This document shows, one piece after another, positions 31,850 through 64,000 of a DNA stretch of 64,000 nucleotides; positions within the stretch are counted from its first letter, which is position 1; each line of letters begins with the position of its first letter. Made by a program: the position numbers and the translations under genes. Below the pieces are notes generated by a model, which was given only the letters and a program-made list of their open reading frames with translations, did not search any database and was not told the DNA's origin. Source of the stretch: Schmidtea nova (lineage: Eukaryota); contig CM097882.1 of assembly GCA_044892505.1 (NCBI GenBank), positions 591,976,001 through 592,040,000 on the forward strand, in the 5' to 3' direction.

Positions 31850-32054
31850 TTTTGGTTTTAATTTCCGTTATATTTTCTTATTTTAATTTTTCCATCGATT
31901 TTTTAAATTTCCNNNNNNNNNNNNNNNNNNNNNNNNNNNNNNNNNNNNNNNNNNNNNNNNNNNNNNNNNNNNNNNNNNNNNNNNNNNNNNNNNNNNNNNN
32001 NNNNNNNNNNNNNNNNNNNNNNNNNNNNNNNNNNNNNNNNNNNNNNNNNNNNNN

Positions 32055-36682: not shown

Positions 36683-36785
36683 TTTGTGTTAAAAATAACA
36701 ATAATAATAATAAAGGTAATAATAATAATAAAAATAGTAGTAATAATAATAGTAAATACAGTATGATGATAATGATAGTATTAAC

Positions 36786-37135
36786 CAGTGTTCTTTCTAA
36801 TAAAATAGGTTCCGGAACGCATTCTTTGAAAATACAGGCCTTGAATTTTTTTGATAACTAAAACATTTATGTAATTTATTAAAATTAAAATACATTTATT
36901 CTATTTTAATACAAAAATATTCAAAATTTGTTATAAAGAAACAATAAAATTATTATATAAAATTTTAAGAAATTCCAAACATTCATTATTTTTTTGGTGA
37001 GACTCAGGATCTATTTTTCGCTCCTTGCTTTGAGTGTTAATTGCAGAATGATGTCCTCTAAAGATCCACGACTTTAGATATTTTTTGAAATAGCTTCCGG
37101 ACCGCCGTCTCGGTGCGTTCCAACAGAAAATACTG
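36786..37135. mobile_element. Small hAT-like MITE (second copy 43716-44065)
   Basis: CAGTGTTCTTTC...GGAACGC and GCGTTCC...AAAATACTG termini; target-site duplication not clean. Confidence 0.5.
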
Positions 37136-38589
37136 GCGGTATTAATAATAACAATAAATAATAATTATTATAAATTCTTACGAGAACAAAAAATTTAATA
37201 TAGAGACTGAATTCTCAGTCAAACCACCAAAAATATTTCGTAATTCGTAATCGACTTTTGAAATCTAAAAAAGAGCATACAGGAGATGGATCTCAGAACA
37301 GCATTACATATATTGACATAGTATATACCAAAATATATACATGTCACAAGTGATATCTTTTTAATTATATTAGGTAAAAGTCTGGCAATCAATTTGTATT
37401 GGATAAAATTTGCAAACCAATGTTAATATTGTTTTTTTAAATAAGAACAACAAGCTGAGATTCTGAATCACTAACTACTTAACTTAACCTGGTAACAACT
37501 GCTACTTTACGATTAGTTTAATTTAAAATTTTTTTTTATAAAATTTATTCTTTTTTTAGTTTGGATTTACTAAATTTAATTTTTATAATTAAATCTTTAA
37601 TCTGAGTTTCTTTGTTCAACCTCGATATATAAAAAATTTTCAATGATAATAGATCAATAAGTTAAATTAAATCTAACTACAAATTTTAAGAATAGCCCTT
37701 GCCAAGTATTAATCATTTAAATTCGTATCGAGAAAATAGATTGTAATTTTTATTTTAAATATTTTTTTTGAATAGACCTAAGCATAACAATAATTTGTTG
37801 GGTGAATGGATGTTCTGAGAGGCCTTATACGTTAATAGATAGCTGGGGTATTGGAATTTTGATTAGTGTGGATGAATGCTTGTGAGTTAGTGTATTTTAT
37901 TTAAACAAAACAAAATAATAAATATATTCAAATTTTTTAGCACAAGCACCAAAAGATTAATCAAGACAATCTTTGTTTGTTCATATTAATTCTAAATGAA
38001 TGTTTTGTAGAATAAGAATCTTCACAGAAATTTGAATATTTCGATTTTACAAAATGCTTTTTTATAGATTTTGATTTCTTTGCACTGGTTTGCTTGACAA
38101 AGTATTTTATTCTTCACTTCGATTTAACCGAAATTGAATTAGTGTTTTATTCTGGAATTTGTATTTCAATCAAGTATCGCGTGATAATTTTTATCAATTT
38201 TTACTTTTTAATAGTAATCTTGTTACATTAAAATTTCATTGGATATGGACTTTCCAGGAATTGGTTTGCAAAATAATTTATCTTCTATTATACTAATTTC
38301 ATCAACATCGAATATACGCAATTAATTGAGTAACTTTTACATTGGTTACCTCATATACTTTTATTGTGAATTTTGAAGTACGCTGTCGAGAAACTAGCTG
38401 ATCGAAAAGATCTTCAGATATATCATCGTTTTTTACCAATTTCATTTTTAGCAAGTGGTTTCTCATATGATTTGACCAATATTTTTTAATCATAAAAATA
38501 ACTATCAATAATAACATTTGTAAATCTTTATGATAAATAGTGTTAAGGGTAACTTATCATATCTCATTTCATTCAATTCTGTCCAATAA

Positions 38590-40285
38590 CCCGTGCATAA
38601 AATTTAATCACTGCCCTCTGAGTATTTACCCGCGATAGCTACTTGTGTTCATGTTGGTAATGTACAACTCGGGTGCGTAACGAGTGACAGATGAGCGTCT
38701 GTGTTAGAAGTACTCCCACTCGCTATGCTATTTACGGTCCTGTAGGTGATAGAAGCCTTCATTCATTCCCTGCTCATCCTAGTCACTAATTTTGGAGAGA
38801 CTTCGCTGTTGGCACAGACTTTAGTGGTCTACCCTCACTTTTTAACATAATAAACCCTTTATTTACATCTCAGTATTATTCTACACATAAGACGAAATGA
38901 AAACAAACAGTTGTATTTAACACAACATTTATGCCAGTTCATGAAATTTTAACACTTCGTCCATTAATTGTAATTTGGTTAAGTCTTCTAGATGACCTAC
39001 TTATTTATCCAATTTTCTTTGACAGACGCATCTCCTGGAAAATACGGAAACAACGTCGCTTACGGGCACTCATGCGCTTCCTACGTTTGGCCGGATTTTC
39101 CGGGGGTGTTTGTTTGCTAGTTAGTTCTGGTGATCTTTCTTCAGTTTTTGAGTTAGACATTCCGGGAAACCATTAGTCAAAGGTTAATAGTCGGATACAT
39201 CCTGCCAGTTCCCTTGTAATGAAATTGGTAGACATCCTTTCTCTGCACCGCTTCAACTCCAATTGAGTAGCCTGTAACTTAATTTCCTGATCGAATGACC
39301 CACTGGGCCATTTCTAGCCTTTGGTAGAAGGTTTATACCAGGTTCGGAGCGAGGTACGTACCTTTCACTTCCTCTATCCTTCACTTGAGAACTCTTTGTG
39401 CCCGTTCGTGAAGCGCGTCGTTCTGTCGCGAACATTTGCACAATCTAATACTTTTACCATTTACTTTGGATGCCATTATTGTTAACTAAAAAGAAGAAAA
39501 TCATAGAAGTACTTAGATCACTGTTGGTCAGATATTGCTACAAATTCAAATACAAAATATAGTTTAAATACACTATTTCGTAAATATCTTGATTCGCTGC
39601 TAACCCATGCCTGGTGTTATTTTTCCCACAAAGAAAATTAAGGGTTTAAACGAGACAATTCTATTTATTTAATAATGACACATTTAGTCCATTAGTTATC
39701 TCCGTAATAGTATCTTCGGACGTCCTTGGCTTTCTGGGGTGATTCAGGTGAACTAGGTGACCCAATGCGAGGAATTTTGTGATCGAAATTTCACCCACTA
39801 GGATTAGCTCACTCATCCCCGCCACCTTACTCGGTACGGTCGCGAAACACGTTTGGTCTCCAGGTTTCCTTGCCCTTCAACTTCAATAGGCCACTGGGAT
39901 GACCCGTGCTATGTGATCTGACACCAGCTATCCTTCCTTAGGTTGATCAAAGGAGCTTTCCGTTCTTGATAGCGCTGGTTATTTATTCGGATTACTTGTT
40001 TGATAATTGACCGAGGTAACTTTTGTTTTGGCACGATTTTCATTCCTTTAAATCGTAGGGTCTTTCTGGTCAGATCGGGCTATAATCGACCTTGTGCTCT
40101 TTATTGTTCGGGGAAGATAATGATTCCTTAATTTGGTTTTATTTGATTGATCTGAAGCTGGTATAAATAATGCAAATACATTTATTAACAATTATCCGCG
40201 ATTCACTTTTCCCCGACTCCCTTTTTTAATAATTCACCCATGAATTTGTAGGCTTATCCCGACCCATTTGTGTAAATCATTAATT
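38590..40285 (-). mobile_element. Second member of the unclassified ~1.7-kb family
   Basis: Peptide and 5' motif homology to 11560-13330; same layout of conserved domain, coiled-coil/basic segment (PAKRRKRMSARKRR) and GC-richer tail. Confidence 0.55.
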
Positions 40286-43200
40286 TCAGTTATTAAACCT
40301 AGTAAATAGCAATTGTGTGTATCATTTAGTTTTTTTAAACTAGTAGTTTTGGTTTATTCAACTTTTAAAATTTGTTCTGCTTCTCCAATCATTTCGATTA
40401 ATTCGTTTGAAATATTTAAATTGGAATTTGTAATTTTGTAATATATTGACATTTTGAAAACGGAAAATGTTTGAAAAAGTGTTTGTAAAAACAGTATAAT
40501 TTTAATATAGTAATAATTAAATATTTTTTAACGTTAGTGATGCTTTAGTGATATAATTTTTTATTAAAATACTATTTAGATACGACGAACACAATTTTCC
40601 TCGTACTTCTAATCGGTCAGATTTCTTACACCTGTTTTAGCACAGTTTTCAAAAGTATTTGAGCTGTAATTATGTCCTAGAAAGTATATGCAAAGAAATT
40701 TTAAGCAGTTGCTACGATAGGGATATCATGATTCATTTTATCCTTCCGGTTCATTAATCTAAGCGGTCTTATCAATGAATCTTTTGCGGATTGCAATGGT
40801 AAAGGGCAAGACGATTCTATATATTCTACTTATTTACTGATTTTAGTGATTTTCCAATTATCAGTTTATTACTTTATAAAACTATAATAAATAGTTAAAT
40901 GTACTCATTAATAAATTCATTTCCGAAGTCGTCTATTTTTGTGTACTAATGTTGTATCCATATTGAGATTAAAGCTTTTAGTCAATAATATTTGGTTTAT
41001 TGAAATTGAATATAAATGCAAGATAGGGATTGCGGTTGCAATTATTACTGAAATTTCATTTTTCAATAATAATTTCTCAATAAGTCAAAATACTTTATTT
41101 AATTGGTTGCACTGATAAAGTGAACAAAGTGCTAAATAATAGTTATTATTATATTATTTATATAATTGTGTGTATCATTAATTTTGAATGAAAAATATAT
41201 TACAAATAAATTCAGTACACACAGTTCGTGAAAATATGAAACTTACCTTATAATTTGGTGTTAATATTAGTCGTATTTCTTGAAGATGATCTCGTATTGT
41301 ACTTTCACAAGATGGTCTAGGGCCTAGACTCTAGGCAATGTACGATTATTAACCCTTTCGTAAGTCGTTGGAAGTATTATTCCGACTTGTTTTGAATAAT
41401 TAGCAAAAGTTTGAATTTTTGTGATGGAAATATTATTTCTTAGAATTTTTCAAACCACACAAAAATTATTTTTCAGTAATTCCATTATGTCCATAAAGTG
41501 TTCGCACTAGAAAGAAAAAAATGAATCATGTTTCCATGTAAAAAATTTGTCCATGAAAGGGTTTGCAACCTGGTTTAATCACAATATATTTCAGTGCAGT
41601 TTAAAATGTGAGCAAAATATATTTCCCATAGTGTTTTTGGAGAAATAATACGGATTAATAAAAATTTTTTATATTATTGGACTAGTAAACAATTGCAGTA
41701 AATTACTGACGGAATTGAGTCGAAGAGTATATTCAATGCAAACGAATTTTTTTTTGCTATTTGTACCCTTGAACGGATAACGAATATGCACAGATAAACC
41801 TATCGGCAGTTGAATTATATTTGTTTAAAGCGCGACACACTTTTTTAGAATTACATTATGAAATACCTAAACAAATAATAAGCATTTTTGATTATTTCAA
41901 ATATTGTTGTAATGATGAATAATTATGAAAAAATGATTTCCTTGTTTTTCAATGTGGTGTAAGGTTAATAATAACACTTTTAACGATATTTTAAACTCTA
42001 TTACGCAAGATCTATCACAATTGGATTACTTCTTATGGGGTGTCATTAATCAGTAGCTTTTTTAAACTATCCTTGAACAAACTATTCGTCAAAGGATGGT
42101 TTAACAAGGGAATCTGATTCCATAGAAAACTAATTCATACATGCTTAGAATTATTCTAAATTCTTTCGTTGAACGCGTTTTAAATTGTATTGAGTTAAAT
42201 CCGTGATTCTGAACATGCACTGTAACTGATAAGCTTGCTGATAATTGATAAATTAAATAAAATTTCACAGTGGATTTCTTATATACTTTTATTATGAAGA
42301 CTTATGAGGCACGCTAAAACATAATTTTATTTACTCTCAAATTGTAAATATTATATACAAAAATGTTTTCTAAGTTTTCTATTATTATCTAAATATTTAT
42401 AAAATTTATATCTATATAAATATTATTATGTTTTGCGTCGAAAAAAGCTGGTATTTGATAAAAAAACATAATTACTGAGATGAATTTCGACGCTTTTTCA
42501 TAATATTTAGAGATTCTCGAAAAGATCTTATTGACCCATTCTTAAACAGATCATCAATTTGTTTACAGTTTTAAATTTTTAAAAGAAACATTAGAATGAT
42601 TTTCGTATGCAGTGTGCGTGGGAATCTATAACACAAGCTTGTTCGAATTACTGTAATAAGATGACTGATCAAACTTCCGGTGTATTACAGTAAAACAGTT
42701 TTATTTGCAATTTAATAAAATATAAATATTATTTAACACATTAAATGCCAATCATTATAGAGGAACTGAATATATCCAGAAGTCAAACCGAGATACCATA
42801 TGTTCGTATCCTAGAATAGAAAAGGAGTCAGCTCTATCTTTGAAGCCAATGCGTTAATTTCTTCAAATATCAGACTTAATAAGAAATTTAAAATTGCCTG
42901 ATTTTGTATATTATATGAGCTGTTTTGTTTCTTCACCAGAAAATCGATAAATTCTGCAGATATAGCAACGAAAAAAATAAAGTGTATTAGACCAAAAAAT
43001 TAAGAACAAGGTATTCAGATTCGGGTCGTGCTTCTTCCGGTATTTAAATAACAGCGATAACCAATAAATTTTAATTGTGTTGGATACTAGAAAATTAATA
43101 GAAGTATTTAGAATCAATTATATTCTTTAAAATAGGGACAAATAAGTACAGAATAACAATTAAATTTGACTAATTCCAAGCAATCGGTTGATAGTGTTGA

Positions 43201-45519
43201 TTTTAACAATTTATCGATGACAATTTGTGATTATCTTATTTTTAAGTAACAGTTTTAATTATAATCTGAAAATATCAATATCAATTTATCAATTTGTCAT
43301 TTGATTTATTTTACGATGATTAAAAATGCTATGCGTAAATTAATCTCAAAAAAGTAAAACAAAATTAATATTTTTAAATAAATAAATTCTAACCATATCA
43401 GATTGAAGAGAAGTACCAATAATTATATATTTGCTACTGAGTGCACAATATTGTGAGTTCAAAACTGCGAGTAACATCGCATATAAGTGCAAGAAAAAAA
43501 TCAAGATCGAGTGATAAAAATTAATAAAATAAAAGCTCAGATATTGTGCAAATAATAATCCAAAAATAAATGCACTAAGGGCTTGACTCAAAATAGAGCA
43601 AATAAAAAGCAATTTGTGTTAAAAATAACAATAATAATAATAAAGGTAATAATAATAATAAAAATAGTAGTAATAATAATAGTAAATACAGTATGATGAT
43701 AATGATAGTATTAACCAGTGTTCTTTCTAATAAAATAGGTTCCGGAACGCATTCTTTGAAAATACAGGCCTTGAATTTTTTTGATAACTAAAACATTTAT
43801 GTAATTTATTAAAATTAAAATACATTTATTCTATTTTAATACAAAAATATTCAAAATTTGTTATAAAGAAACAATAAAATTATTATATAAAATTTTAAGA
43901 AATTCCAAACATTCATTATTTTTTTGGTGAGACTCAGGATCTATTTTTCGCTCCTTGCTTTGAGTGTTAATTGCAGAATGATGTCCTTTAAAGATCCACG
44001 ACTTTAGATATTTTTTGAAATAGCTTCCGGACCGCCGTCTCGGTGCGTTCCAACAGAAAATACTGGCGGTATTAATAATAACAATAAATAATAATTATTA
44101 TAAATTCTTACGAGAACAAAAAATTTAATATAGAGACTGAATTCTCAGTCAAACCACCAAAAATATTTCGTAATTCGTAATCGACTTTTGAAATCTAAAA
44201 AAGAGCATACAGGAGATGGATCTCAGAACAGCATTACATATATTGACATAGTATATACCAAAATATATACATGTCACAAGTGATATCTTTTTAATTATAT
44301 TAGGTAAAAGTCTGGCAATCAATTTGTATTGGATAAAATTTGCAAACCAATGTTAATATTGTTTTTTTAAATAAGAACAACAAGCTGAGATTCTGAATCA
44401 CTAACTACTTAACTTAACCTGGTAACAACTGCTACTTTACGATTAGTTTAATTTAAAATTTTTTTTTATAAAATTTATTCTTTTTTTAGTTTGGATTTAC
44501 TAAATTTAATTTTTATAATTAAATCTTTAATCTGAGTTTCTTTGTTCAACCTCGATATATAAAAAATTTTCAATGATAATAGATCAATAAGTTAAATTAA
44601 ATCTAACTACAAATTTTAAGAATAGCCCTTGCCAAGTATTAATCATTTAAATTCGTATCGAGAAAATAGATTGTAATTTTTATTTTAAATATTTTTTTTG
44701 AATAGACCTAAGCATAACAATAATTTGTTGGGTGAATGGATGTTCTGAGAGGCCTTATACGTTAATAGATAGCTGGGGTATTGGAATTTTGATTAGTGTG
44801 GATGAATGCTTGTGAGTTAGTGTATTTTATTTAAACAAAACAAAATAATAAATATATTCAAATTTTTTAGCACAAGCACCAAAAGATTAATCAAGACAAT
44901 CTTTGTTTGTTCATATTAATTCTAAATGAATGTTTTGTAGAATAAGAATCTTCACAGAAATTTGAATATTTCGATTTTACAAAATGCTTTTTTATAGATT
45001 TTGATTTCTTTGCACTGGTTTGCTTGACAAAGTATTTTATTCTTCACTTCGATTTAACCGAAATTGAATTAGTGTTTTATTCTGGAATTTGTATTTCAAT
45101 CAAGTATCGCGTGATAATTTTTATCAATTTTTACTTTTTAATAGTAATCTTGTTACATTAAAATTTCATTGGATATGGACTTTCCAGGAATTGGTTTGCA
45201 AAATAATTTATCTTCTATTATACTAATTTCATCAACATCGAATATACGCAATTAATTGAGTAACTTTTACATTGGTTACCTCATATACTTTTATTGTGAA
45301 TTTTGAAGTACGCTGTCGAGAAACTAGCTGATCGAAAAGATCTTCAGATATATCATCGTTTTTTACCAATTTCATTTTTAGCAAGTGGTTTCTCATATGA
45401 TTTGACCAATATTTTTTAATCATAAAAATAACTATCAATAATAACATTTGTAAATCTTTATGATAAATAGTGTTAAGGGTAACTTATCATATCTCATTTC
45501 ATTCAATTCTGTCCAATAA

Positions 45520-47215
45520 CCCGTGCATAAAATTTAATCACTGCCCTCTGAGTATTTACCCGCGATAGCTACTTGTGTTCATGTTGGTAATGTACAACTC
45601 GGGTGCGTAACGAGTGACAGATGAGCGTCTGTGTTAGAAGTACTCCCACTCGCTATGCTATTTACGGTCCTGTAGGTGATAGAAGCCTTCATTCATTCCC
45701 TGCTCATCCTAGTCACTAATTTTGGAGAGACTTCGCTGTTGGCACAGACTTTAGTGGTCTACCCTCACTTTTTAACATAATAAACCCTTTATTTACATCT
45801 CAGTATTATTCTACACATAAGACGAAATGAAAACAAACAGTTGTATTTAACACAACATTTATGCCAGTTCATGAAATTTTAACACTTCGTCCATTAATTG
45901 TAATTTGGTTAAGTCTTCTAGATGACCTACTTATTTATCCAATTTTCTTTGACAGACGCATCTCCTGGAAAATACGGAAACAACGTCGCTTACGGGCACT
46001 CATGCGCTTCCTACGTTTGGCCGGATTTTCCGGGGGTGTTTGTTTGCTAGTTAGTTCTGGTGATCTTTCTTCAGTTTTTGAGTTAGACATTCCGGGAAAC
46101 CATTAGTCAAAGGTTAATAGTCGGATACATCCTGCCAGTTCCCTTGTAATGAAATTGGTAGACATCCTTTCTCTGCACCGCTTCAACTCCAATTGAGTAG
46201 CCTGTAACTTAATTTCCTGATCGAATGACCCACTGGGCCATTTCTAGCCTTTGGTAGAAGGTTTATACCAGGTTCGGAGCGAGGTACGTACCTTTCACTT
46301 CCTCTATCCTTCACTTGAGAACTCTTTGTGCCCGTTCGTGAAGCGCGTCGTTCTGTCGCGAACATTTGCACAATCTAATACTTTTACCATTTACTTTGGA
46401 TGCCATTATTGTTAACTAAAAAGAAGAAAATCATAGAAGTACTTAGATCACTGTTGGTCAGATATTGCTACAAATTCAAATACAAAATATAGTTTAAATA
46501 CACTATTTCGTAAATATCTTGATTCGCTGCTAACCCATGCCTGGTGTTATTTTTCCCACAAAGAAAATTAAGGGTTTAAACGAGACAATTCTATTTATTT
46601 AATAATGACACATTTAGTCCATTAGTTATCTCCGTAATAGTATCTTCGGACGTCCTTGGCTTTCTGGGGTGATTCAGGTGAACTAGGTGACCCAATGCGA
46701 GGAATTTTGTGATCGAAATTTCACCCACTAGGATTAGCTCACTCATCCCCGCCACCTTACTCGGTACGGTCGCGAAACACGTTTGGTCTCCAGGTTTCCT
46801 TGCCCTTCAACTTCAATAGGCCACTGGGATGACCCGTGCTATGTGATCTGACACCAGCTATCCTTCCTTAGGTTGATCAAAGGAGCTTTCCGTTCTTGAT
46901 AGCGCTGGTTATTTATTCGGATTACTTGTTTGATAATTGACCGAGGTAACTTTTGTTTTGGCACGATTTTCATTCCTTTAAATCGTAGGGTCTTTCTGGT
47001 CAGATCGGGCTATAATCGACCTTGTGCTCTTTATTGTTCGGGGAAGATAATGATTCCTTAATTTGGTTTTATTTGATTGATCTGAAGCTGGTATAAATAA
47101 TGCAAATACATTTATTAACAATTATCCGCGATTCACTTTTCCCCGACTCCCTTTTTTAATAATTCACCCATGAATTTGTAGGCTTATCCCGACCCATTTG
47201 TGTAAATCATTAATT
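45520..47215 (-). mobile_element. Duplicate of the 38590-40285 element
   Basis: Part of the 6930-bp-offset tandem duplication. Confidence 0.55.
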
Positions 47216-47791
47216 TCAGTTATTAAACCTAGTAAATAGCAATCGTTCTCAGCATAATGCAGATCTAAAATTTGTTATGGCAGCAATCTGTTGATTTTAC
47301 TCAGTTCATTCTATTTACTCTGACCCACAATGGATTTAATTATGGAGTTTATTAGTAGACAATAATGCTAAGCAAATGATTTAAGTTCAACATTGATGTT
47401 CCTAATCGCGAAATTATCGATTTAAAAAAATTCGCTCGCTACTAAATGCTATAAAATTTATGTGGGTTATGGCGTTCTAATGAATTTGGATATTCGGGGA
47501 TTCTCTAAATTCTTCTAAAGCTTACTAGAAAGCTTACAGCTTCTGAATACTTTTATATCGGCCGACCACTGCTTCTACCCACCATGTTAACACTTTTAGA
47601 TCGTTACTACTTTATCCCCCAATGAAATTCTAATTTCTCTCTTCAATTGTTATCTCTATAAATATTGCTTTCGTCGCGGCTTGATATATTTATCCGCCTA
47701 GCAAATAAGCAGACCTGAGATTCGCGGGGAACCGAGCACGACATCACTCCTTCGTGGCTCCAAGATATCGATCAAATTTAACACCATAATT

Positions 47792-51465: not shown

Positions 51466-54400
51466 AAAAAAAATGTTAAGGATCGGGAGATCCGAATTAA
51501 TAAAATTTTAGACGAACTAAAACAAAGTGGAGAGATTCCGAATTTCTTAATCAATTCTCAGTTAAAGTATTCAAATGGAGAGTTTCTTCTGTTAGACCTT
51601 ATTAATTCCGATGAATTAGTTGGCGACAGCACTGATCTAAACCCAATCGATCTTTCTCGCTCTGAATTGGAAGAATTAACAAAATCCTTTCCTGAAATTC
51701 CAAAGCTCTACTTTATGGAAAACGTGAACAGGTATCCTGATTTATTAATTAATTTAATTAAAGAATTAAAAACTATAAAACATTTTCCTAATGAGATTTC
51801 ATTTGTTGGGGGTAAATTTGTTAAAAATAAAATTTTTCAAAACTCTGTTGGACTGCACGATAATGGTGCGTCTGACATAATGTTTAATCTTGGCTTATTA
51901 GACTTTGTAGAAATGTCAAATGTGGACATTGAGTTCAATAAATTATTAAAACAGCCTCAGTCACCTGAGAAATTAATAAATATAATATTTTACTTAAATT
52001 ACCTAAACTTACAGGGATCTTTAAAATGCAAAATAAATTTATCATTTAATATATATGTTTATAATTACATTCGTAACTGCTTCCTAATGCACTCGATTGT
52101 GAAGCTTGAGAGTGTAGACTCCTTATGCTGCGATAATATTGAATCCTGGGCTATGGAACTAATTAAAAAACTACCTACCAACTCCTATTATAACAAAAGC
52201 TGCCAAGAGCGCTTCCTAAAACTCAAACAAACTTTTATACTTCAAGAGATCGATAAAATAAACAACATCATCTCTCCAAAAACTATTTTGGATATTAACA
52301 ACTTCTTTGATTCTATCGATAATCTTTTGCCAAATAAAGCACAACAACTAACGGCACTTGAAAATATAGGACGTGGAATTAACGAATTCCAAGACGATTT
52401 GGATAACTCAAACACCTTGAAAGCGAAAAGACTCTTATTCTTTCTTATTAGAGATAAAAAAACTTTTCTTTTAAAAAATAAATTTACTTTCCGCGTTCCC
52501 AAATACTGTAGAAAGATTTGTACTCCAGAAATGAGCGAAGGTATATCTAGAATCTTATGCTCTATTAAGCTAACTGTCAATGAAAAACCTGCTATAGAAA
52601 AGGTTGATAAGCCTGTGATGGGGAACAATGAGAATACTGAAAAGCTTGTAAACGAGCCTCTTTTTTCTATTCCTGAATGCGATGAAGCCGAAATAAATTA
52701 CAATTTGGTAGAAAACCCTACAAATAAACTTCCTGTCGATATTGATGAAAATTTGACATCAAACACTGAATTAATTGATAGTGAGTCTCAAGACTCTTCG
52801 AAAAAGCCTATTAAAAAACCCAAACGTACGGCTATCAAAAACAAATGAAGTTGTGTGCCTGCACCAGTCTCAATATCTGCCCCAATCTCAACAGAGACTG
52901 ATGCAGACAGCACATTTCCCAAAAAATTTAAACCATCTAAAATCACAAATATATTGCGTGACCCTAAAATATGGTTTACTGATGATGACATTGATAACTA
53001 TCTTGAATGTCATATCAATGACCCTAAATTTGCTCCAATAAAATGCTTTCAAATAGAAATCTTACGGGCAAATCTTTGCGAAACCATTTTTCGAATGCCA
53101 GACAGAGTAATATCTGCGCAAACTCTACTATGTCCAATAAATATTAATAAAACTCATTGGATTATTTTTGTGTATTGTAAAACTTCTTTAACTTCATACT
53201 TTGTAGATCCTCTTTTCAACAACCGCCATTCGTTGACCAATAGAGCCGACGCTCTTCAAACTACAATCGCTTTGAATCGTCTTTTTAACCTTAAAGCTGC
53301 ACTATTTTTCCACCCACATAAAAACTTTGTCTACCAAAATAATAACTATGACTGTGGGCCTTACATCTGTGCTTATGCTATGATGATAAGTGGTACATGG
53401 CAAAAATTTCCTGATGATTTTATAGAAAATATCAGAAAAGATGTCTACCAATTTAAACTTACTTTAAATAACATGGTCCCAAAATCATCTGGAGGTGGTG
53501 AATCTAAACTCACTAACCCTAAGAGAGTGAAAAAAGACACAACTCTAAATATTTCTAATAAACATGACCACATCTTCCTTATGAAACGTAATGCCTGCAT
53601 CTCGTCTTTGATTACCGAATGGTTTAAAGACCATAAAGACATCTTGGTCCTGTCCCAAGAACTTACACTAAATATAATCTCTAGAAATAACTCATTTATT
53701 AGAGAAAATGTCACGTTTAAAAATTTTCTCGGGATTAACCATGTCATCAGTGTTATCCCAAATGATAATTACTGGTGTTTATATCTTTTTTCTATTACAC
53801 ATGGTGCAAGTTACGTTTTTAACAATCAAGAAAAACCTATTTCTGACCGTTTACTTGGCATCGGCGAAAATATTACTGACTACTTGAATAAGTTCTTTCT
53901 ATCAACAAACATTTCTTTTAAACCTAACCACGGCTTGGAACTGGTGCCCAACATCTCTGATGATACAATTCTCTTTGCGTCGGTTTTTATTGAGCTTCTT
54001 GAGAAACTTTTGTTTAATAAAGTTATTCATTTTTTAAATATACACAAATCATTAAACTCAATAAAATTAAGGGAAACAAATGAAATCTCTCAGAATCTAA
54101 ACTTACTTAATTCTAAAATTTCGGATAAAATAATTTCAATGTTTTTTGATAATTTAAATTTACCCAAGACTTTTTTTTTACTGAGTGCGACCATGTGCAC
54201 GGCTATTCTTGACGATTGTACTCAACACATAAATGATTTTCTGAATTTTGAAAATATATGCAAATCACAAATCATCTTTGCGATTGTTGCTCCCCCTAAA
54301 CATCGTGAAATTTTGCTCATTCTCGATTATAGTGTTGACACCTTTTATCTTGTAAACCCAACATCTTTAACTGTGAATGACAATTATCTGTCTACTTGCA

Positions 54401-56340
54401 GAATTCTGAGAAATAAAATAAATGACATAAAAGATACACCTGGCCGCGTTTTGAATCTTTCTGAATGTCCCCATGACATCCGCAGCTCAGGTCTTGTTAG
54501 TAAAATTCTCTTGTGTGCGTTTATTAATAATTTCTCGAAAAATTTGCCCCTTGTAAATTTAAACTTGCGCGAGATTGGAGACGTGGTTGGCTCTTTGCTT
54601 ATCTTTGTCAGGCAGCACGATAATATAGAAAACCCAAGTAACACTAAAATTATTCATAAAGCTATATTGAGAGTTCCGATAAAACAAAAGAGAACTAATG
54701 CTGAACTATTTTTAATTAAATGGGCAAATTATAGCACAAATGAAATTATTCACGCGATTATGGAGCAATTCCCTGAAAAAGTGAAACCAGCTAAAAAACC
54801 ATACTTGGGAACCAAAATTAAAACTTCTAAAATTAGCAAAAATAAATTGATCGATTTATTCATGAAAGATATGAAGACAGCTGTCAATAAGGTCATCAAC
54901 AATTTCGATGTACCGGCTCGACCAACTTTTCAGAACATAGTTAAAAACTTTTCTCATGAAACACCTGCACGTGGGCATTGGGAGAAACTATTTGACTTTT
55001 GTAAACACTCTCAAAATGTACTTCCTCTGAAATGCTTCTCGAATAGGGAAGTGATGTATGAACTTAGGAGGGCTGACAACACTAGTCCTGGTATTGATGG
55101 ATTACAATATCGTGACTTGTTGCGTCTAGATCCTGATGGTCATATACTTACTTTCTTGTTCAACAAGATCATTACAGAGAAGTCCATACCGGACAGTTGG
55201 AAGGTCTACAAAACCACTCTAATCCCGAAACCTAATAAAAATGATAAATATTCAGATATATCATCCTGGCGCCCGATTGCCTTGCTATCCGTCATCTACA
55301 AAGTTTTTGCGTCCTGTCTAGCCTCTCGTCTTGCACGCTGGATAAACTATAATAAACTATTACATGTTGGACAAAAAGGTGGCTCCCAACATTAAGGTTG
55401 CGTTGAACACAACTCGATTCTGTCTGCTGCTCTGGAACATTCCAAATATAGTAAAAACTGTCCTCTTTCCATTGCTTGGCTCGACATAAAAGATGCTTTT
55501 GGTAGTGTCCCACATGATTACATGTGGTCCTTACTCCGATACACTGGGGTAAGTGAAGACTTTACCTCCATCTTAGAACTTTTATATTCTGACACAAGCT
55601 CCTTCTATAGTTGTGGTCCTATTCTGACACCAAAGATCCCAATTAATAAGGGTGTCAAGCAAGGATGTCCCATCTCCATGATTTTGTTTGCTTTGGCGAT
55701 TAATCCTGTGTTGGAAGCTGTTTCCAGAACAGTCTGTGATGCTTTTGCTATTGGAGAATCATCTGTCAAAATTCTCGCGTATGCAGATGACATCGCAATT
55801 TTCGCTAAATCTCCTAATGACCTACAAAAACTCATTAACACTGCTGTCACAACTGCAACCAATATAGGCTTTGAATATCGGCCAGAGAAATGTGCTTATC
55901 TGCAACTTCCTAGAATTCACATTGACAGTGAAATTTCAATCAATGGAGTTAAAATAAAAAAACTACTGTCTAATGAATTTTATCAATACCTAGGTGTGCC
56001 AGTTGGCGAAGGAACTGACCAAAGTCATTACGACATTCTACTGGAGGCACTCAAAGACACCAAAAAACTTGCTGATTCGGATTTGCTTGGGTGGCAAAAA
56101 CTTAAAGCGTACAAAGTATTTATCCATTCTCGCTTGATCTTCCCTTTTAGAACCCGTGAAATTAAAACTAGTGCACTTTCAAAATCTTATGATAATAAAA
56201 ATCTTTCAGTTAACATCACTAGCCAGTTAAGGAAAACCTTAAGAAAAATGCTGCTTTTGCCTAATCACTCGGAAGTGAGTTATTTCTACAATTCAACTGA
56301 AAATGGGGGAGCAAACTGTGTTGATCTCCTCGAACGAATA
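51466..56340 (+). mobile_element. R2-superfamily (NeSL-like) non-LTR retrotransposon with Ulp1/C48 protease and RT; two in-frame stops; 3'-truncated
   Basis: ORFs 51667, 52855 and 55522 share one frame, separated by TGA (52846) and TAA (55393). Ulp1 motifs KTHW, FVDPL, QNNNYDCG. RT motifs SPGIDG, WRPIALL, WLDIKDAFGSVPH, GVKQGCPIS, YADD, PEKC, YQYLGV. Confidence 0.9.
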
Positions 56341-57188
56341 TACATGACAGGATTCTGCACTGTGTTGACTTTCGATATTTGATATACCTAATCACTCCAA
56401 TTATTATCAAAATTTTTAATGAATGGCGATGTACTATTCTTGCTAATTCGAACATGATCACCAACTTTATATTTTGGTTTCTTTACTTTAACTTCACTCA
56501 CAATATTTTCAGTATCAACTACTTCGGCCGGTTTCCTGCCATTTATACCCCGATGAGCACTATGATTATAACTGTGAATCAATTGAGGTAAGACATTAAT
56601 CCAGGTTTAATTGCCTTTAAAAACAAAGTATTTTTTCAATCGATCACGCAAAGTTCGATTAAATCTCTCGACATGAGCGGCTTTGAATTGCTAGAATACC
56701 GAATAAAAATTTATTCCCTTGATAACTTCCTTGACTTTACTGTTGTAAAATTCCTTTCCTAAAATATATATTAAATATATTAAATTCTATTTAAATTTAC
56801 CTAAATCAGTTTGTAAATTAGTTGGCCGATCCTTTTTCATCATTGTTTTGATAGCGATTGCCATGTCATTAGCAGATTTAGATTTGACTCCAATTGCTCG
56901 AGCAAATCGACTGTAAACATCAATACATGTTAAAATATACTTGTACCCCTTGTTAATAGCAGAATACGGAATCATTTCCATCAAGTCCATTTGCCACAAA
57001 TCATTGATTCTATATGTTTTATATGCTCGAGTTGGAAACCGTTTCAACATCGGTTTGTTTAGACTGTATGCAAGTTGCCCCGATAACCAACTTTGTGTCT
57101 GTTGTTTCGACTTCTGTGCTTTTTTCCTTAGCTTTTCGACTCCACCGAAACCGGCGTCATCTTTTGGGTTCGTCCAGATCTTCTCCAT
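56341..57188 (-). pseudogene. Maverick-type retroviral-like DDE integrase with 42-nt intron (56759-56800), three stops, truncated C-terminus
   Basis: WQMDL, YILTCIDVYSRFA, QTDLG|KEFYN across a GT-AG intron, HVERFNRTL, YNHSAH, KYKVGDHVRISK; stops at 56691, 56607, 56388. Confidence 0.9.
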
Positions 57189-57243
57189 TACAACAAGAAG
57201 ATTTAAAGTTTAAATTTAAATTAGGTAATGATTGACCCATTGT

Positions 57244-57768
57244 TTATGACTTTCTTTTTCCCAATAAACCAGCACCTCCCAATAATGATAATGCTAATGG
57301 TAACAATGCTGCGATAAAACTACCTTGTTGTTTATATATTATTTTGCGCATAAGTTTTCTATTTTTTGTGTTTACTAGCGACAACAATGGTTTTTTATGC
57401 TTGTTCAAAACACGTCGATTAGATGGAGTTAGATTCATTTTACCTCGCACGACTTTAATTAAAATAGCGAGTAAATCATCGATGACGTAATTAGGAAACG
57501 ATTGAAGAATACCCATTCTTCTAACGGAGGGGGCTTTAAGTAATGCATTAAAAAACGGTAAACTACGATTATGTAGTGGTTTAGCATTAGATTTCAAATT
57601 AATTTGATTATTTTTGGGAATATTATCCATAATTATTTTCTTGGATCTTGATTTCTTTCTTGATTTCTTTCTTGATTTATTTATAGATTTCTTTGTAATT
57701 AGTTTCTTTGTTTTCTTTGTTCTAGCCTTTATCAATTGCTCAAACTTTACTCGAGATTTCATTAACAT
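57244..57768 (-). CDS. Lys/Arg-rich protein with C-terminal QQGSFIAALLPLALSLLGG segment (putative virion core/DNA-binding protein)
   Basis: Intact 174-aa ORF between ATPase and integrase; the GxFxxxLLP hydrophobic tail recalls Polinton small structural proteins. Confidence 0.7.
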   Translation of the reverse strand: MLMKSRVKFEQLIKARTKKTKKLITKKSINKSRKKSRKKSRSKKIIMDNIPKNNQINLKSNAKPLHNRSLPFFNALLKAPSVRRMGILQSFPNYVIDDLLAILIKVVRGKMNLTPSNRRVLNKHKKPLLSLVNTKNRKLMRKIIYKQQGSFIAALLPLALSLLGGAGLLGKRKS

Positions 57769-57788
57769 TATTATGATTGCAAACAGAA

Positions 57789-58383
57789 TTAACTTTGTTT
57801 ATAAACCATGGCTCCTTCAGTGTTAAAAATATCAGTTCTAACTCGTAAATCATCACTACATTGTTGTGTAAAATCCAGGAAAATATATCCATGAGGAGAT
57901 TTTGTAGCATCTTGAAAGGCTTCAATCAAAAAGTTACGGTTAGAAGGATAAGCCTGTCTTGCCAGAAAATCAATAACTGTTGCATCTCTAGGATTTTTAA
58001 AACAACAAGATATTGAACATTTAAATTACGGGTTCGATGACTACCGCCCTGATGAAATAAATTCTAACAGTAACACCTTTATGTCTACTGATTTTCGTAA
58101 ATAAGTTATTGAAATCCTTTTCTTTATTTGCTTCTTGATACAAGTCATCACCCTGTTTTAATCTAGATGACCAGTTTTTATCGAATCCTTTTATGATTGT
58201 CATTTTTATTTTACAAAACTGATCTTGTGTCATTCCGCTTTCGTCGTCAGCACCCCTATGCCAATAAATATTATTAAATTTTGACTTGAATAATTTCGAT
58301 TGCAATAATTTACAAACAAATAAAGTTTTTCCACTCCCGCTCGGACCAACAATTTGAAATACTGCATCATTTCTTAATTCCAT
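57789..58383 (-). pseudogene. FtsK/A32-type genome-packaging ATPase, frameshifted
   Basis: Walker A GPSGSGKT; Walker B region apparently shortened (GD-DLYQE); FTKISRHKGVT; after a frameshift (Q)NLFHQG..RTRNLNVQYLVVLKNPRD...PHGYIFLDF. Confidence 0.9.
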
Positions 58384-58476
58384 ATTTAAAAATTATATCT
58401 AAATAATATTATTGTTTATATTTGTTTTAATTACTCACTCTCAAAATAATTGTTTCATTTAAAAATAATTTCAGTA

Positions 58477-58944
58477 ATGATTAGAAACATTAATTACAAG
58501 GGTAAGACAGATGTATCACACATGAAATTTCCAAATGGAAAACCACAGCAAATTGTAGATCGAAGTGGGAAATACCCAAAAATATACTTTAAAACAGGAA
58601 GATATAGAATAATGGGATGCAAGGAATTTATTAGTGACGAACAAGTTGAGTTTTACGATTTAAAAATTCAATCGATAACTGTAACTGCGGATTTAGGATT
58701 TATTTGTAATTTGAATGAATTATCTAAATTGATACCGTATGTTTACGAGCCAGAATTATTTCCAGCTTTGAGATATACCAAATATAATCCAATATGTGTA
58801 AATATATTTGCAAGTGGGAAATTAGTCATATTAGGATTAAAAAACAAAGATAATTCAACTATAGTTGATGATATTATTAACGATATAAAATCAATTATAG
58901 AAGATAAAGCCTTTGTTGATTTCATACTAACATGTGACTCATGA
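58477..58944 (+). CDS. Divergent TATA-binding-protein-like protein (~155 aa)
   Basis: Repeat 2: IQSITVTADLGF...YEPELFPAL...VNIFASGKLVILG. Degenerate repeat 1: IRNINY...IYFKTGRYRIMGCK. Frame intact. Confidence 0.85.
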   Translation: MIRNINYKGKTDVSHMKFPNGKPQQIVDRSGKYPKIYFKTGRYRIMGCKEFISDEQVEFYDLKIQSITVTADLGFICNLNELSKLIPYVYEPELFPALRYTKYNPICVNIFASGKLVILGLKNKDNSTIVDDIINDIKSIIEDKAFVDFILTCDS

Positions 58945-58972
58945 CTGCAATATCGATGCAGTAGAAATGCAC

Positions 58973-59087
58973 GATTCTGATTGGTTGAGTGTGTATTTCG
59001 AGAATAAAGACATGTTGTGCATGCTTGATTCTGATTGGTTCATTATGTATCGTTTTCTAAATCATGTGTGTTTCTTTCGTATATAAA
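58973..59087 (+). promoter_or_regulatory. Pol II-type promoter: two inverted CCAAT boxes plus TATA box
   Basis: 14-bp direct repeat GATTCTGATTGGTT at 58973 and 59027; TATATAAA at 59080, ~40 nt before ATG 59123. Confidence 0.65.
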
Positions 59088-59122
59088 CTATGAACAAACT
59101 GACATAGTTTATATCTACAATT

Positions 59123-59703
59123 ATGTCGCAAAATACAAAGAATTTAAAAAATGGTAATAATAAAATTAATATATTTTCAAATTTAATATATTTTATTTTT
59201 TAGAAAAACGCATGTCCGTAATCTACACCAAACTGGCTGAGATGTTCCCCAATCTGATGCAGACGCTGACCTATACAGCACCGGAGCTGTTCCCGTACAA
59301 AATTCACGTTTTGACGGGAATAGATGTAAATCAAATATTAAAGGAACATTTGGAAAATCTCAACAATGATTTGCCTTTTATGGCCAAACACATATTATGC
59401 GCCTATCAATGCGGGCACTGTGTGGATAGGATCCATAAATTACAAGTGTGGGTTCTCCGAAATACCCTAAATCAATTCGAAACCAAGGAGATGAAGGAAA
59501 TCATCGAGGAGGCAATGGAACAAGAAAGATGGTTGAACTCAACTCCCGAACCGATTGATGATTCAATTGAGATTGAAGCACCAGCGATAGATGAACCATT
59601 GGAATCGCCACAATCACCTGATTGTGATGAGTGTCACCAAAAGGTTGACGATTGTGATGATGATGGTTGCCAATCTCTTGGTGGTGAACCATCAGATATG
59701 TAA
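59123..59703 (+). CDS. Unknown protein with CxxxCxxC motif and acidic tail; join(59123..59153,59204..59703)
   Basis: 50-nt phase-1 GT-AG intron joins MSQNTKNLKN in frame to EKRMSVIY...; motifs APELFPYKIHVLTGIDV and LCAYQCGHCVD. Confidence 0.75.
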
Positions 59704-60060
59704 ATTTTATTATTATATTTTTTGTTGAATAAAAGTTTTTGAATTAATTTCTTTAGTTTTGATTTCATTATTTGTATTAGCTTTTTATGTAAATGTTTTA
59801 ATTTATTAAACTTTTTATTAAATAAGAAAGTGTTTTGGTTTTTAAAAAAAAAGTATTTTAGTTATGAAAGTTTTTATTATCAGTAAGAATGTGTTTTTTA
59901 TTTTTGATGAAAAATAATAATAATTATGAAATAAATAATTACAAAACTTAGGAACATTAGTAACAGAACATTCCGAGCAGAACCCTGGTAGCAGAACATA
60001 TTCTGTGAGGGTTTTTATCTGCAAAAGCTCATTACTTGAACATATACAAATTAATTAAAC

Positions 60061-60170
60061 ATGCACGCATACAACAAAGACATTGCAATACAGATGCATA
60101 GTGTGTGCAAGATAAATGCATGAATATGATTGGACAAAGACATCCAGTCATTAGTATAAATACAAAGACG
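60061..60170 (+). promoter_or_regulatory. Promoter-like module with three ACAAAGAC motifs, ATTGG and TATAAATA
   Basis: ACAAAGAC at 60074, 60134, 60162; GATTGG at 60128; TATAAATA at 60155; ATG at 60200. Confidence 0.55.
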
Positions 60171-60199
60171 TTTTATAAAATATTGTCACAATTTATAAA

Positions 60200-60616
60200 A
60201 TGAATTCAAGAAAACAAAATTTAGATATAAGCGAAGAAAAAATATATCAGACTGAGGTAAAACCAGTCCAGATGTACTATGACAGCCGCTTTTATTTTTT
60301 GATTAATGAAATACCGTTTCGATTATCTTATCCGGTAAAGTTAACAAAATCTTTATATGACAGTCTTGCTGTAATTATTGCTAAAGAAGATATTATAACA
60401 TTAAATCGATTGTTTTCAAAGATGAATGTTAATTTATCTTGTAAAGAAACCATGTACATCAATAACAGAAAAACTCGGTTCCATGATGCGTTTCAAACTA
60501 TTGATTTCGTGGATCAAGAACACTGGTTCGTTACCGTTATTATCCAAGGGTACAAGATTGATAAAAAAGATGTTGTTACTCCAATTTGGAGAGTTGACAA
60601 TGCTAGATACGCATAA
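60200..60616 (+). CDS. Unknown 138-aa protein (tentatively OB-fold/SSB-like); contains LSCKE
   Basis: Intact ORF downstream of a TATA module; C-terminal VTVIIQGYKI...PIWRV is beta-rich; function is inference only. Confidence 0.65.
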   Translation: MNSRKQNLDISEEKIYQTEVKPVQMYYDSRFYFLINEIPFRLSYPVKLTKSLYDSLAVIIAKEDIITLNRLFSKMNVNLSCKETMYINNRKTRFHDAFQTIDFVDQEHWFVTVIIQGYKIDKKDVVTPIWRVDNARYA

Positions 60617-60902
60617 TTGTTATTTAATAAATATTTTAGTATGAACAATTTTAGTTTTGATATTAGTTTTTGTTTAAAAAATGAAATGAAATATAGTTAT
60701 TTTATTATTATGTGTTCACAATACTGAAGGAGAACAAGCTTTGGAAGATTGTCAATCATCCCATCCGTTTTGAAGACAAGATAGTACTTGCGCGAGTTAT
60801 AATGATATATGTCTTTACTCAAACATTGAATGCAGTCAAATAAAATTACAATGTAATCAATGTCCTTCTAAAAATAATGTCATTAATAATGATATTGAAA
60901 AA

Positions 60903-61262
60903 ATGATTGCCAAAATAATGATGAAAATAGTTGAACGATTAAAATGTATCAATCAAACTTTTGTTAAAAAAGAATATGAAGTCAGATACCAAAATCAAAC
61001 AGTTGAAAACGAAAAAACAGCCATTGTATTACATTATATAAGTTTATTTATATTAATAATTATAATGATTTTATCTGCATCTATACGGTTGGAGAATATA
61101 TCAAATATTCCAAAGAATAATATTCCGAAAAATACGAATATTCCGATGAATAATATTACAATGAATAATATTCCTATGAATAATATTCCGAGTAATAATT
61201 TAGATGTTAATAATTTTGAAACGAAATTTTGTATACGCACACAACAATATATTTATAAATAA
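60903..61262 (+). CDS. Single-TM protein with NIPxN pentapeptide repeats; frame extends upstream through one TGA into a Cys-rich segment
   Basis: Hydrophobic IVLHYISLFILIIIMILSASI; ~15-bp repeats at 61100-61200; upstream in-frame CASYNDIC...C....CNQC. Confidence 0.45.
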   Translation: MIAKIMMKIVERLKCINQTFVKKEYEVRYQNQTVENEKTAIVLHYISLFILIIIMILSASIRLENISNIPKNNIPKNTNIPMNNITMNNIPMNNIPSNNLDVNNFETKFCIRTQQYIYK

Positions 61263-61369
61263 ATTTTATTTTGTCTTTGTATTTAGAATGTCTTTGTTCA
61301 TGTTGCACGTGTATTGCATTGTCTTTGTTTAAGTTGCACGCGTGTTGCAAACTTTTCGATGACTCATAT

Positions 61370-61530
61370 TTGTGTTAAAAAAATTTGTGTTAAAAAAATT
61401 TGGCGCGAAAAAAATTGGCGCGAAAAAAAAAATTTGAAAAAAAATTTTGGCGCGAAAAGAAAAATTTGAAAAAAATTTTTGGCGCGAAAAAAATATTTGA
61501 AAAAAAAAATTTACCCCCCCGGGGGGGCTC
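61370..61530. promoter_or_regulatory. Array of four E2F-consensus sites in A-tract repeats plus C7G7 palindrome
   Basis: TTTGGCGCGAAA at 61399, 61446, 61478; TTGGCGCGAAA at 61415; CCCCCCCGGGGGGG at 61514-61527. Confidence 0.65.
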
Positions 61531-61901
61531 GAAAAAAAGTTCTTTGTTTAAAATTTTACGCCCACGCATTCCTTTGTCTTTGACTCCACACATCTACCTA
61601 CTTACGTTAACACGATGGTATACTCCAACATTTGTACCAACAGCACCTGTATATCCAAACGAAAAATTAAAAGAGATGAAACCATTATGAAAAATTACTT
61701 TATATTTCTTTCCAATTTTACATTTTTTTGATTGTTATAAAACTAATTATTGGAGTTATTGGGGTTAAATTTATGATAATAAAAAACTTTTTCGAGTAAA
61801 AGTGGCCATAATTCAAAAATTTTTACATCAAGATAATCAAAATTTAACGCTCAACAATAAAAAAGTCATATAAAAACAAAAAGTATTTGAAAAATAAATC
61901 T

Positions 61902-62306
61902 TTATTTAAATAAATCTTCGGCAATAATTTTTGTATTGTAAAGGTCATCATAGTATGTCTTTTTCATTTCAGCAACCAAAATATGAGCAGATTGTTGTCT
62001 TTTGAAATCGTGGCAATAAGCACATCCATTGGTGCATGATACACGCATTGATTCCTTACAAACAATGCAATTTTCAATGCACTTGACTCCAGCTCCAAGC
62101 ACCATATCATAATGCATTTCAAGCAACTCCTCGATATTTATCCCCGTGTATTGGTATATTTTATGTACCAGCAACTCGGAGCACAATAATCGATATTATT
62201 TTCAATCTTTGGGTATAAATCTTAGAACTTCTTGAGAAGTACTTCGAGTAAATAAACCAAAAGAATAAATTAATATAAAAATAAAAATACTCTTACTTTT
62301 CGACAT
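61902..62306 (-). pseudogene. Decayed paralogue of the 59123 CxxxCxxC protein (exon 62297-62306, 55-nt intron 62242-62296)
   Basis: MSK|ILLKKF*DLYP...DYCAP/ELLVHKIYQYTGINIEELLEMH...SCTNGCAYCHD aligns with TYTAPELFPYKIHVLTGIDVNQILKEH...LCAYQCGHCVD; one stop and one frameshift. Confidence 0.75.
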
Positions 62307-62392
62307 TTTCAAATTTTCACAATCAATGAATAACAATTAATACAAACAAAATTTATATAATTAATTAATGTATTTATTTCAATAATTATATT

Positions 62393-62590
62393 TTACACGT
62401 AATCTTTAAAATCCAAAGTTTTTATTCCAAACATAACAACTCTTTTGCTGTTAAAGACATTGACACATACTGGATCAAATTTCTGTAAACGAATTGCTGG
62501 GAATACTTCTGGTTCGAATTAACAAAGACATTTCTTTAGTATTTCGTATAAATTAATAAATTTGCCGACATCGAGCGTCACTGTAGTCAT
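62393..62590 (-). pseudogene. Second TBP-like gene, C-terminal repeat only, with one stop
   Basis: MTTVTLDVGKFINL...*FEPEVFPAIRLQKFDPVCVNVFNSKRVVMFGIK aligns with the 58477 protein. Confidence 0.8.
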
Positions 62591-64000
62591 TCCGAAAAAT
62601 AATATTACCTTTCTTTCCGATTTTACATTTTTTTGAATGTTATAAAAATAATTATTGGAGTTATTGGGGTTTAATTTATTATTTTTTTAGTAATTCGTGT
62701 AAATAAATAAATTTGCCAAAATCGAGCGTCACTGTAGTCATTATGAAAAATTACTTTATATTTCTTTCCAATTTTACATTTTTTTGATTGTTATAAAACT
62801 AATTATTGGAGTTATTGGGGTTAAATTTATGATAATAAAAAACTTTTTCGAGTAAAAGTGGCCATAATTCAAAAATTTTTACATCAAGATAATCAAAATT
62901 TAACGCTTACATTTTTTTGAATGTTATAAAAATAATTATTGGAGTTATTGGGGTTTAATTTATTATTTTTTAGTAATTCGTGTAAATTAATAAATTTGCC
63001 GACATCGAGCGTCACTGTAGTCATTATGAAAAATTACTTTATCTTTCTTTCCAATTTTTTATTTTTTTGATTGGTATAAAAATAATTATTGGAGTTATTG
63101 GGGTTAAATTTATGATTACGAAAAACCATTTTTGAGTAAAAGTGGCCATAATTCAATAATTTTGTTGGGTTTTTTGTTGAAAGTCGGTTCTAATTTCTGA
63201 CTCCTGGTGTTCTTTTAACAAATAATTAACCCAACACAATAACCTTTATTTCAATATCACAGTTTATCACAATGATTGAACAATATAAGAACTGTCTTTT
63301 TACACNNNNNNNNNNNNNNNNNNNNNNNNNNNNNNNNNNNNNNNNNNNNNNNNNNNNNNNNNNNNNNNNNNNNNNNNNNNNNNNNNNNNNNNNNNNNNNN
63401 NNNNNNNNNNNNNNNNNNNNNNNNNNNNNNNNNNNNNNNNNNNNNNNNNNNNNNTATCTCATGCTCATAATATTACTATAATACTAATAATAAGTGACGG
63501 TCGCCTTCTTCAGTCCCTGTCCAGGGATCCAAGCCCCGGTGACTAAAATTGGACACTTTCATTTTATTATTATGTCCATATTTAATTTCAATAAATTTGT
63601 AACTTTGATAACGTCGGTGTATAATAACAATGCTGATATACTTCAAATAATTCGATTCTGATACTATTAATAATAATAAACTCAGAATTTTTAAATCATT
63701 GATTATAATTCTGACAATTTTTATTTTGATAATAATTTTTTTTTTTGATTTTTTTTTTATATTGCATTAAATTTTGCATAATTTTTATTAATAATAATTT
63801 GGGGGTTGCCCTTAAACAAATAAGAGACAAAATTCGCTGAAGTTTTATTTATAAATTTATAAATACAAATATAAAATTTTAATTGAATTTTAATTCAAAA
63901 CTTTCTTCACCGTGGCAATATTGGACAATTGTTCCTTTTCGCACATACGTCTTCCCTGCATATGTTATCGAATTTTCTATTTGCAAATTTGAACCCACTT

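Follow-up and report, generated by a model that had tools for sequence, protein, structure and literature searches.

An array of E2F-type sites as a candidate regulatory element in a putative decayed Polinton-like fragment

What are four E2F-type sites and a C7G7 palindrome doing between the genes of a virus-like element in an AT-rich animal? The initial annotation of this locus, which noted these motifs at a site 3' of convergent genes in a viral module, proposed an S-phase-responsive enhancer or a replication or packaging origin. We analysed the whole 64-kb stretch of DNA that contains them (the window; ~27% GC, without CpG depletion), whose base composition and thyroid-receptor-like exon identify the host as an AT-rich animal. 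All four motifs are exact matches: the E2F cores TTGGCGCGAA start at 61400, 61415, 61447, and 61479, and these are the only four in the window. Three of the four sites carry the full two-sided 12-mer TTTGGCGCGAAA, starting at 61399, 61446, and 61478 (site 1, 61399..61410; site 3, 61446..61457; site 4, 61478..61489), which occurs nowhere else in the window. At site 2 (TTGGCGCGAAA, 61415..61425, minus strand) the 5' flank is only TT, and TTTSSCGC is matched on the minus strand alone. The E2F consensus is TTTSSCGC or TTSSCGC (PMC5716687); seven of the eight TTTSSCGC matches in the window fall within the array, at the four sites. The E2F identity claimed initially is exact, and the 12-mer equals the core of a DHFR probe used in EMSA (PMC5622404).

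TRF and unit parsing resolved the region 61369..61511 into a tandem array of 15–16-bp units of the form T(2-5)-G-core-A(5-10), with a higher-order 32-bp period (TRF periods 15 and 32, 86% matches). It comprises nine units, two with the core TGTT, four with GCGCG, and three that are coreless and read TTTGAA. The A-tracts that had been noted between the motifs are present as spacers, with measured lengths of A5–A10 and not A6–10. The three TTTGAA copies (61433, 61465, and 61496; 61433..61501, plus strand) match the canonical CHR hexamer bound by LIN54/MuvB (PMC5716687, PMC5683655), and they alternate with the GGCGCG cores at spacers of 10, 10, 10, 10, and 9 nt. The canonical CDE/CHR tandem element has a 4-nt spacer (PMC5716687). 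In the array, the E2F-to-CHR spacing is 7–11 nt in every register on both strands and never 4, and the hexamers at +4 from the E2F cores are A/T tracts; the array is therefore not a member of the CDE/CHR class. DREAM can also be recruited by an E2F site alone or a CHR site alone (PMC5716687). TTTGAA is common in the window (159 copies outside the array, 0.25 per 100 bp), and the reading of these copies as candidate LIN54/MuvB sites is suggestive only.

The clustering of the E2F cores is not due to chance, yet it reflects one tandem amplification and not four independent events. In 300 Markov simulations, half of order 2 and half of order 4, no simulated window had three or more cores within 90 bp, and the window total of eight TTTSSCGC matches is marginal against shuffled sequence (mean 3.05; at least eight in 4 of 100 shuffles). 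Because the array is a tandem repeat, the fair null is a single motif that was then amplified: one two-sided 10-mer occurs in 9–12% of simulated windows (600 in all), and the two-sided 12-mer in ~1% (3 and 4 per 300). The invariance of the cores among the array units is uninformative, since there are very few substitutions.

The C7G7 palindrome lies beside the array at 61514..61527, as initially noted. It is a perfect 14-bp palindrome that the flanks do not extend, holds the sole C7 run and the sole G7 run of the window, and arose in none of the same 300 simulations. We take it to be a candidate zinc-finger site, either Zic-type, as it resembles the Zic-family palindromic consensus, or Sp/KLF-type. 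One Zic1 site with a CCCC-GGGG core is tabulated in PMC11201823; our literature search returned no printed Zic palindromic consensus that matches C7G7. No Rfam family matched in 56300-64000.

Pfam and homologue matches bear out the virus-like gene context of the array. An rve integrase (56391..57188, minus strand; Pfam rve 2.6e-8, above cut-off) has a candidate 42-nt intron and two in-frame stops, and its 3' end abuts a retrotransposon. It is followed by a small basic protein (57244..57768, minus strand) whose C-terminus is hydrophobic and Gly-rich; this protein has 7 homologues among 528 candidates and a homologue in the related locus L001 described below (probability 96.9); presumably it is Polinton pX-like. 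An A32/FtsK-like packaging ATPase in two reading-frame pieces (57792..58383, minus strand) has a weak Pfam Pox_A32 match and a tblastn match of 1e-13 to the L001 ATPase, which itself scores above the Pox_A32 cut-off. On the plus strand lie a TBP-like protein of a distinct family (58477..58944; Pfam TBP 1.3e-13; 65 matches among 74 candidates), gene X, which encodes a Cys-containing protein with an acidic tail (59212..59703; aligned to one homologue, P0073), and gene Y (60200..60616; no homologue among 4 candidates). Gene Z is a remnant, read by eye, with a Cys-rich stretch, a hydrophobic segment, and an Asn-rich repeat tail (60774..61262, plus strand; no Pfam match); across 60680-61262 it resembles a broken Cys-rich membrane protein with that tail and matches no family. 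The predicted models of X and Y (pLDDT 49 and 42) are too poor for fold searches, and an Atlas search with gene X returned nothing.

On the other side of the array, two broken genes point back towards it on the minus strand. X' (61902..62195) is a paralogue of X, linked to it through P0073 (tblastn 6e-21; alignment), and is convergent on the array. On both sides the array is flanked by ORF 3' ends that converge on it, as the initial annotation had stated. TBP' (62360..62584; tblastn with P0002, 68%, 2e-30) is a second TBP-like gene that continues, in its 5' part, into a 151-bp tandem repeat; it is identical to the first TBP-like protein at 18 of 36 positions. The distinct family of the two TBP-like paralogues has many relatives, mostly unnamed. 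The layout TBP-X-Y-Z, array, X' and TBP' could represent a single element that underwent an inverted duplication long ago, or a head-to-head pair of elements.

An integrase and a packaging ATPase are hallmarks of Polintons and adintoviruses (PMC8502044). The module has both, the integrase gene being broken, and shares with Polintons, Mavericks, and adintoviruses the rve integrase, the A32/FtsK ATPase, and the small basic pX-like gene (PMC8502044, bioRxiv 2023.08.22.554363); it differs in its duplicated TBP-like and X genes and their inverted arrangement. No PolB, capsid protein, or maturation protease was found among 37 window stretches scanned against Pfam (17 + 20), and no long inverted repeat bounds the module in the window; the ends may lie outside it or be lost. 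We therefore name it a Polinton-like fragment, and it appears to be a decayed Polinton/Maverick-like element, cut on the left by the retrotransposon and on the right by repeats, by a gap, and by the end of the window. Candidate short GT-AG introns (42–50 nt) at 56759-56800 in the integrase and 59154-59203 in X imply nuclear Pol II expression. The integrase, the TBP-like protein, and 61263-61682 had no match in phage and plasmid collections, where the BLAST low-complexity filter weakens the DNA result. Rb-binding "Oncoid" proteins have been proposed for adintoviruses (PMC8502044); LxCxE-like words occur in Y and X' and are not conserved in X or P0073, and we rejected them as Oncoid candidates.

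The array had been described as not at an obvious promoter, a statement that the adjoining 80 bp contradict. In reverse orientation, 61263-61366 matches the block that precedes gene Y with an alignment score of 46 (null 26.1 +/- 4.1; 0 of 200 shuffles as high), and the Y block is the top-scoring of 502 window tiles; the alignment test covered 56 region comparisons, of which three cleared the print filter. The match includes 26 nt that are 88% identical, inverted, to 60073-60098. The array-side block (61272..61349, minus strand) faces left and contains three CAAAGAC, two TGCA-N7-TGCA, and a degenerate TATA. The Y block (60057..60181, plus strand) contains three TGCA-N7-TGCA, three CAAAGAC, a reverse CCAAT, and TATAAATA, and the block upstream of gene X (58946..59090, plus strand) contains two TGCA-N7-TGCA, AAAGAC, two reverse CCAAT, and TATAAA; a TATA-like word follows both the X and the Y block. 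Block sharing holds although the flanking TBP paralogues are only ~50% identical.

Of the eight TGCA-N7-TGCA copies in the window, the three blocks contain seven (0.6 expected per spacing), whereas other spacings from 3 to 13 have 0–2 copies, and 7 of the 15 window copies of CAAAGAC lie in 843 intergenic bp (0.11 expected); both motifs were chosen after inspection of the sequence, and the excess is large. The two recur together at 58946-58971, 60084-60120, and 61304-61349. In the X and Y blocks CAAAGAC is oriented towards the gene that follows; all four copies near the array point left, including a fourth on its far side (61575..61582, minus strand). On the minus strand, followed along the right-hand genes from TBP' to X', CAAAGAC comes first, then C7G7, (CHR-E2F)x3, E2F, and the element's own type of promoter block, an order that puts the array in the position of an upstream activating sequence. 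The array-side block faces the 3' end of gene Z, which ends 10 bp away, and ORF reading of the window found no ATG-initiated ORF downstream of it. TTTSSCGC is absent from the X and Y blocks.

A contig scan for relatives, which used a query alignment (A2) of 19 of the 65 TBP-like matches, reduced 17 candidate stretches to one locus, L001 (contig JAJRUL010000009.1, 3352 bp). L001 is distant and partial and has the same order of basic protein, ATPase, and TBP genes, its distant TBP-like gene having the same position relative to the ATPase. It ends inside this gene, short of the position equivalent to the array, and contains no TTTSSCGC. Its ATPase and TBP genes are separated (1700-2061) by an A-tract repeat of 30-bp period and a telomere-like repeat, CCTAAG. 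The A-tract repeat has no E2F sites, and its faint likeness to the array is not significant: 2 of 100 shuffles did as well, in one out of 16 comparisons. The contig is titled as a bacterial MAG, and this Polinton-like DNA is likely a eukaryotic contaminant.

Several known systems resemble the array in part. Adenovirus, a mid-size dsDNA virus related to Polintons, has E2F sites in the cis-regulatory DNA of its E1A enhancer and E2 early promoter (PMC4726734, PMC2794291), and the E1A-enhancer site recruits Rb/p107 and promotes persistence (PMC4726734); the array could likewise serve repression, persistence, and release. It differs in that its four sites form a minisatellite with interleaved CHR hexamers, that it is internal and not terminal, and that it belongs to an integrated, invertebrate-type element. 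The DHFR-type overlapping inverted E2F site has the identical 12-mer (PMC5622404); that site is single and at the transcription start, whereas the array has four such sites set in A/T tracts. In worms, DRM targets are marked by periodic T-rich motifs and by hybrid E2F/CHR motifs (PMC3093354). The CDE/CHR and E2F/CLE elements of DREAM targets (PMC5716687, PMC3093354, PMC5683655) likewise combine an E2F-type core with TTTGAA in periodic T-rich flanks; unlike them, the array is reiterated and has a spacer of 7–11 nt in place of 4. Members of the class lie within ~200 bp of a transcription start; the array stands beside a promoter-like block.

We tentatively favour the reading that a Polinton-like endogenous virus had a compound promoter/enhancer whose E2F/DREAM-responsive upstream section is the array, which would repress in quiescent and release in cycling cells, as the E2F sites of the adenovirus E1A enhancer and E2 promoter do. 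As the repeat structure shows, one two-sided E2F site and one CHR hexamer in A/T tracts were multiplied by tandem duplication. Host E2F/DP would bind the cores, LIN54/MuvB may bind the CHR hexamers, and the A-tracts may help to maintain nucleosome-poor DNA. Pocket-protein/DREAM complexes could then silence the element in quiescent cells, and activating E2F could free it in cycling stem or germ cells. The S-phase-responsive enhancer proposed initially stands in part: the E2F consensus is exact and lies in a virus-like module, and the CHR hexamers point equally to DREAM-type repression. A cell-cycle role is consistent with the exact two-sided consensus, the intergenic position in a virus-like module, the adjacent Y-block homologue, and three almost evenly spaced CHR hexamers. 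The single amplification event, the fact that one two-sided 10-mer is not rare, the non-canonical spacing, the abundance of TTTGAA, the rearranged region, and the decay of the element speak against it, as do the absence of TTTSSCGC from the X and Y blocks and from L001, the lack of an ATG-initiated ORF beyond the leftward block, and the plant mobile-element E2F motifs that are bound mostly without a target (PMC7329337, PMC5950925). The leftward promoter block may have been orphaned by rearrangement or may be a source of antisense RNA. The array probably once coupled the activity of the element to dividing cells and may well have no activity left in the present, decayed copy. A bolder version, which we consider unlikely, is that a TBP-encoding Polinton lineage would couple its own promoter grammar (TGCA-N7-TGCA and CAAAGAC) to an array of repeated E2F and CHR sites whose 10-nt spacing is non-canonical. 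Host DREAM, recruited by the array, would then serve as a latency switch that keeps the element silent in differentiated cells and releases it in cycling stem or germ cells. Such a circuit would resemble the E2F/Rb control of adenovirus, here in an integrated virus of ancestral type.

A serious rival, in our judgement rather unlikely, is a neutral minisatellite in which slippage amplified an A/T-tract unit with a chance GC hexamer, the E2F and CHR likeness arising from the flanking T and A tracts. The tandem structure fits this well, as do the non-E2F core (TGTT) of the first two units, the other local repeats of the module (15-bp, 31-bp, and 151-bp by TRF), the E2F-free A-tract repeat of L001, and the non-canonical CHR spacing. 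It accounts less readily for the rarity of the two-sided 12-mer in simulated windows and for the coincidence of the array, within 250 bp, with the only C7G7 and a significant promoter-like block. That block could also be bidirectional, making the array the promoter of a small plus-strand gene that starts ~90 bp right of C7G7 and is broken by a 169-bp insertion. A stop-free plus-strand frame (61394-61687) does contain a Pro-rich, PTAP-like stretch and runs into the 169-bp duplicate, it is the best of six by codon usage, if barely (LLR 3.1 over 27 codons), and TGCA-N7-TGCA is palindromic; given the lack of a Pfam match, the weak coding signal, the missing TATA between array and frame, and the leftward direction of all four nearby CAAAGAC, unlike the gene-facing copies upstream of X and Y, we regard such a gene as improbable.

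The replication or packaging origin of the initial annotation fares worse, and we consider it very unlikely. An internal origin or packaging signal, like the adenovirus A-repeat domain or the baculovirus hr repeats, would suit AT-rich phased repeats with a palindrome in an element that encodes a packaging ATPase. Polinton-type replication is protein-primed by PolB at the termini, which counts against an internal origin, and the adenovirus packaging A-repeat consensus is TTTG-N8-CG. The latter is absent from both strands of 61260-61690, folding of the array region gives no special hairpin or cruciform (z 0.16; 113 of 200 shuffles as stable), and no terminal repeat was seen nearby. In favour of a packaging signal, the packaging repeats of adenovirus overlap the E2F sites of the E1A enhancer (PMC4726734); IVa2 binds the A-repeats (PMC2794291). 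A separate host-derived or MITE-like insertion with E2F sites, or a misassembled join, is a highly improbable source of the array. E2F motifs were reportedly amplified by MITEs in Brassicaceae (Henaff, 2014), and within 2 kb of the array there are an N gap and an exact 169-bp duplicate. The Brassicaceae motifs are bound in vivo, mostly without a regulatory target (PMC7329337, PMC5950925), and are, like those of the array, amplified and borne by a mobile element; the array differs in its animal host, its virus-like element, and its place beside the promoter-like block of that element. Element-type CAAAGAC flanks it on both sides, it is single-copy in the 64-kb window, and the 25 longest pairs listed include no convincing terminal inverted repeat around it. 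We gave no weight to one source that PMC7329337 cites for RBR1 binding, as it is listed as retracted.

E2F sites have been described before, both in transposons and in the regulatory regions of DNA viruses. The literature searched, mostly outside subscription papers and supplements, held no report of E2F sites or any promoter grammar in Polintons: "Polinton" with "E2F" gave no paper on the topic by title or abstract start, and "E2F binding sites" with transposon and minisatellite gave none. The accessible portions of PMC8502044 and bioRxiv 2023.08.22.554363 make no mention of promoters, nor that of PMC8502044 of E2F, and the opening part of the adintovirus supplement, which starts with maps and a network file, has no match to the array motifs. 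How Polintons and Mavericks are switched on or silenced in animal genomes is essentially unstudied. As a candidate regulatory element, found in a single, decayed copy, the array is real and well placed. A compact E2F/CHR array with a definable promoter block makes the control of these elements by the cell cycle and in the germline directly testable; it also bears on the age of the E2F/Rb circuit in small DNA tumour viruses. Should the array be a mere minisatellite, the recurring TGCA-N7-TGCA/CAAAGAC block would remain a new candidate promoter signature for the lineage.

The surroundings of the module are rich in repeats and mobile elements. A 169-bp piece (61683..61851) is identical, by self-comparison, to 62739-62907 of the 151-bp tandem repeat and represents either a local rearrangement or an assembly collapse. 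The 151-bp repeat (62530-63160) contains part of the TBP' coding sequence and therefore seems to be born from the element. The retrotransposon that abuts the integrase 3' end (51466-56382) is a non-LTR element with a Ulp1 protease and a reverse transcriptase, which we take to be NeSL-like. An exact tandem duplication with a 6930-bp period and many 100% identical pairs (~33400-47250) is either recent or an assembly artefact. Farther left are a MITE-like element (30738-31885) with inverted arms of ~290 nt that are 97% complementary over 185 nt, and a host exon that encodes a thyroid-hormone-receptor-like nuclear receptor DNA-binding domain (25366-25719).
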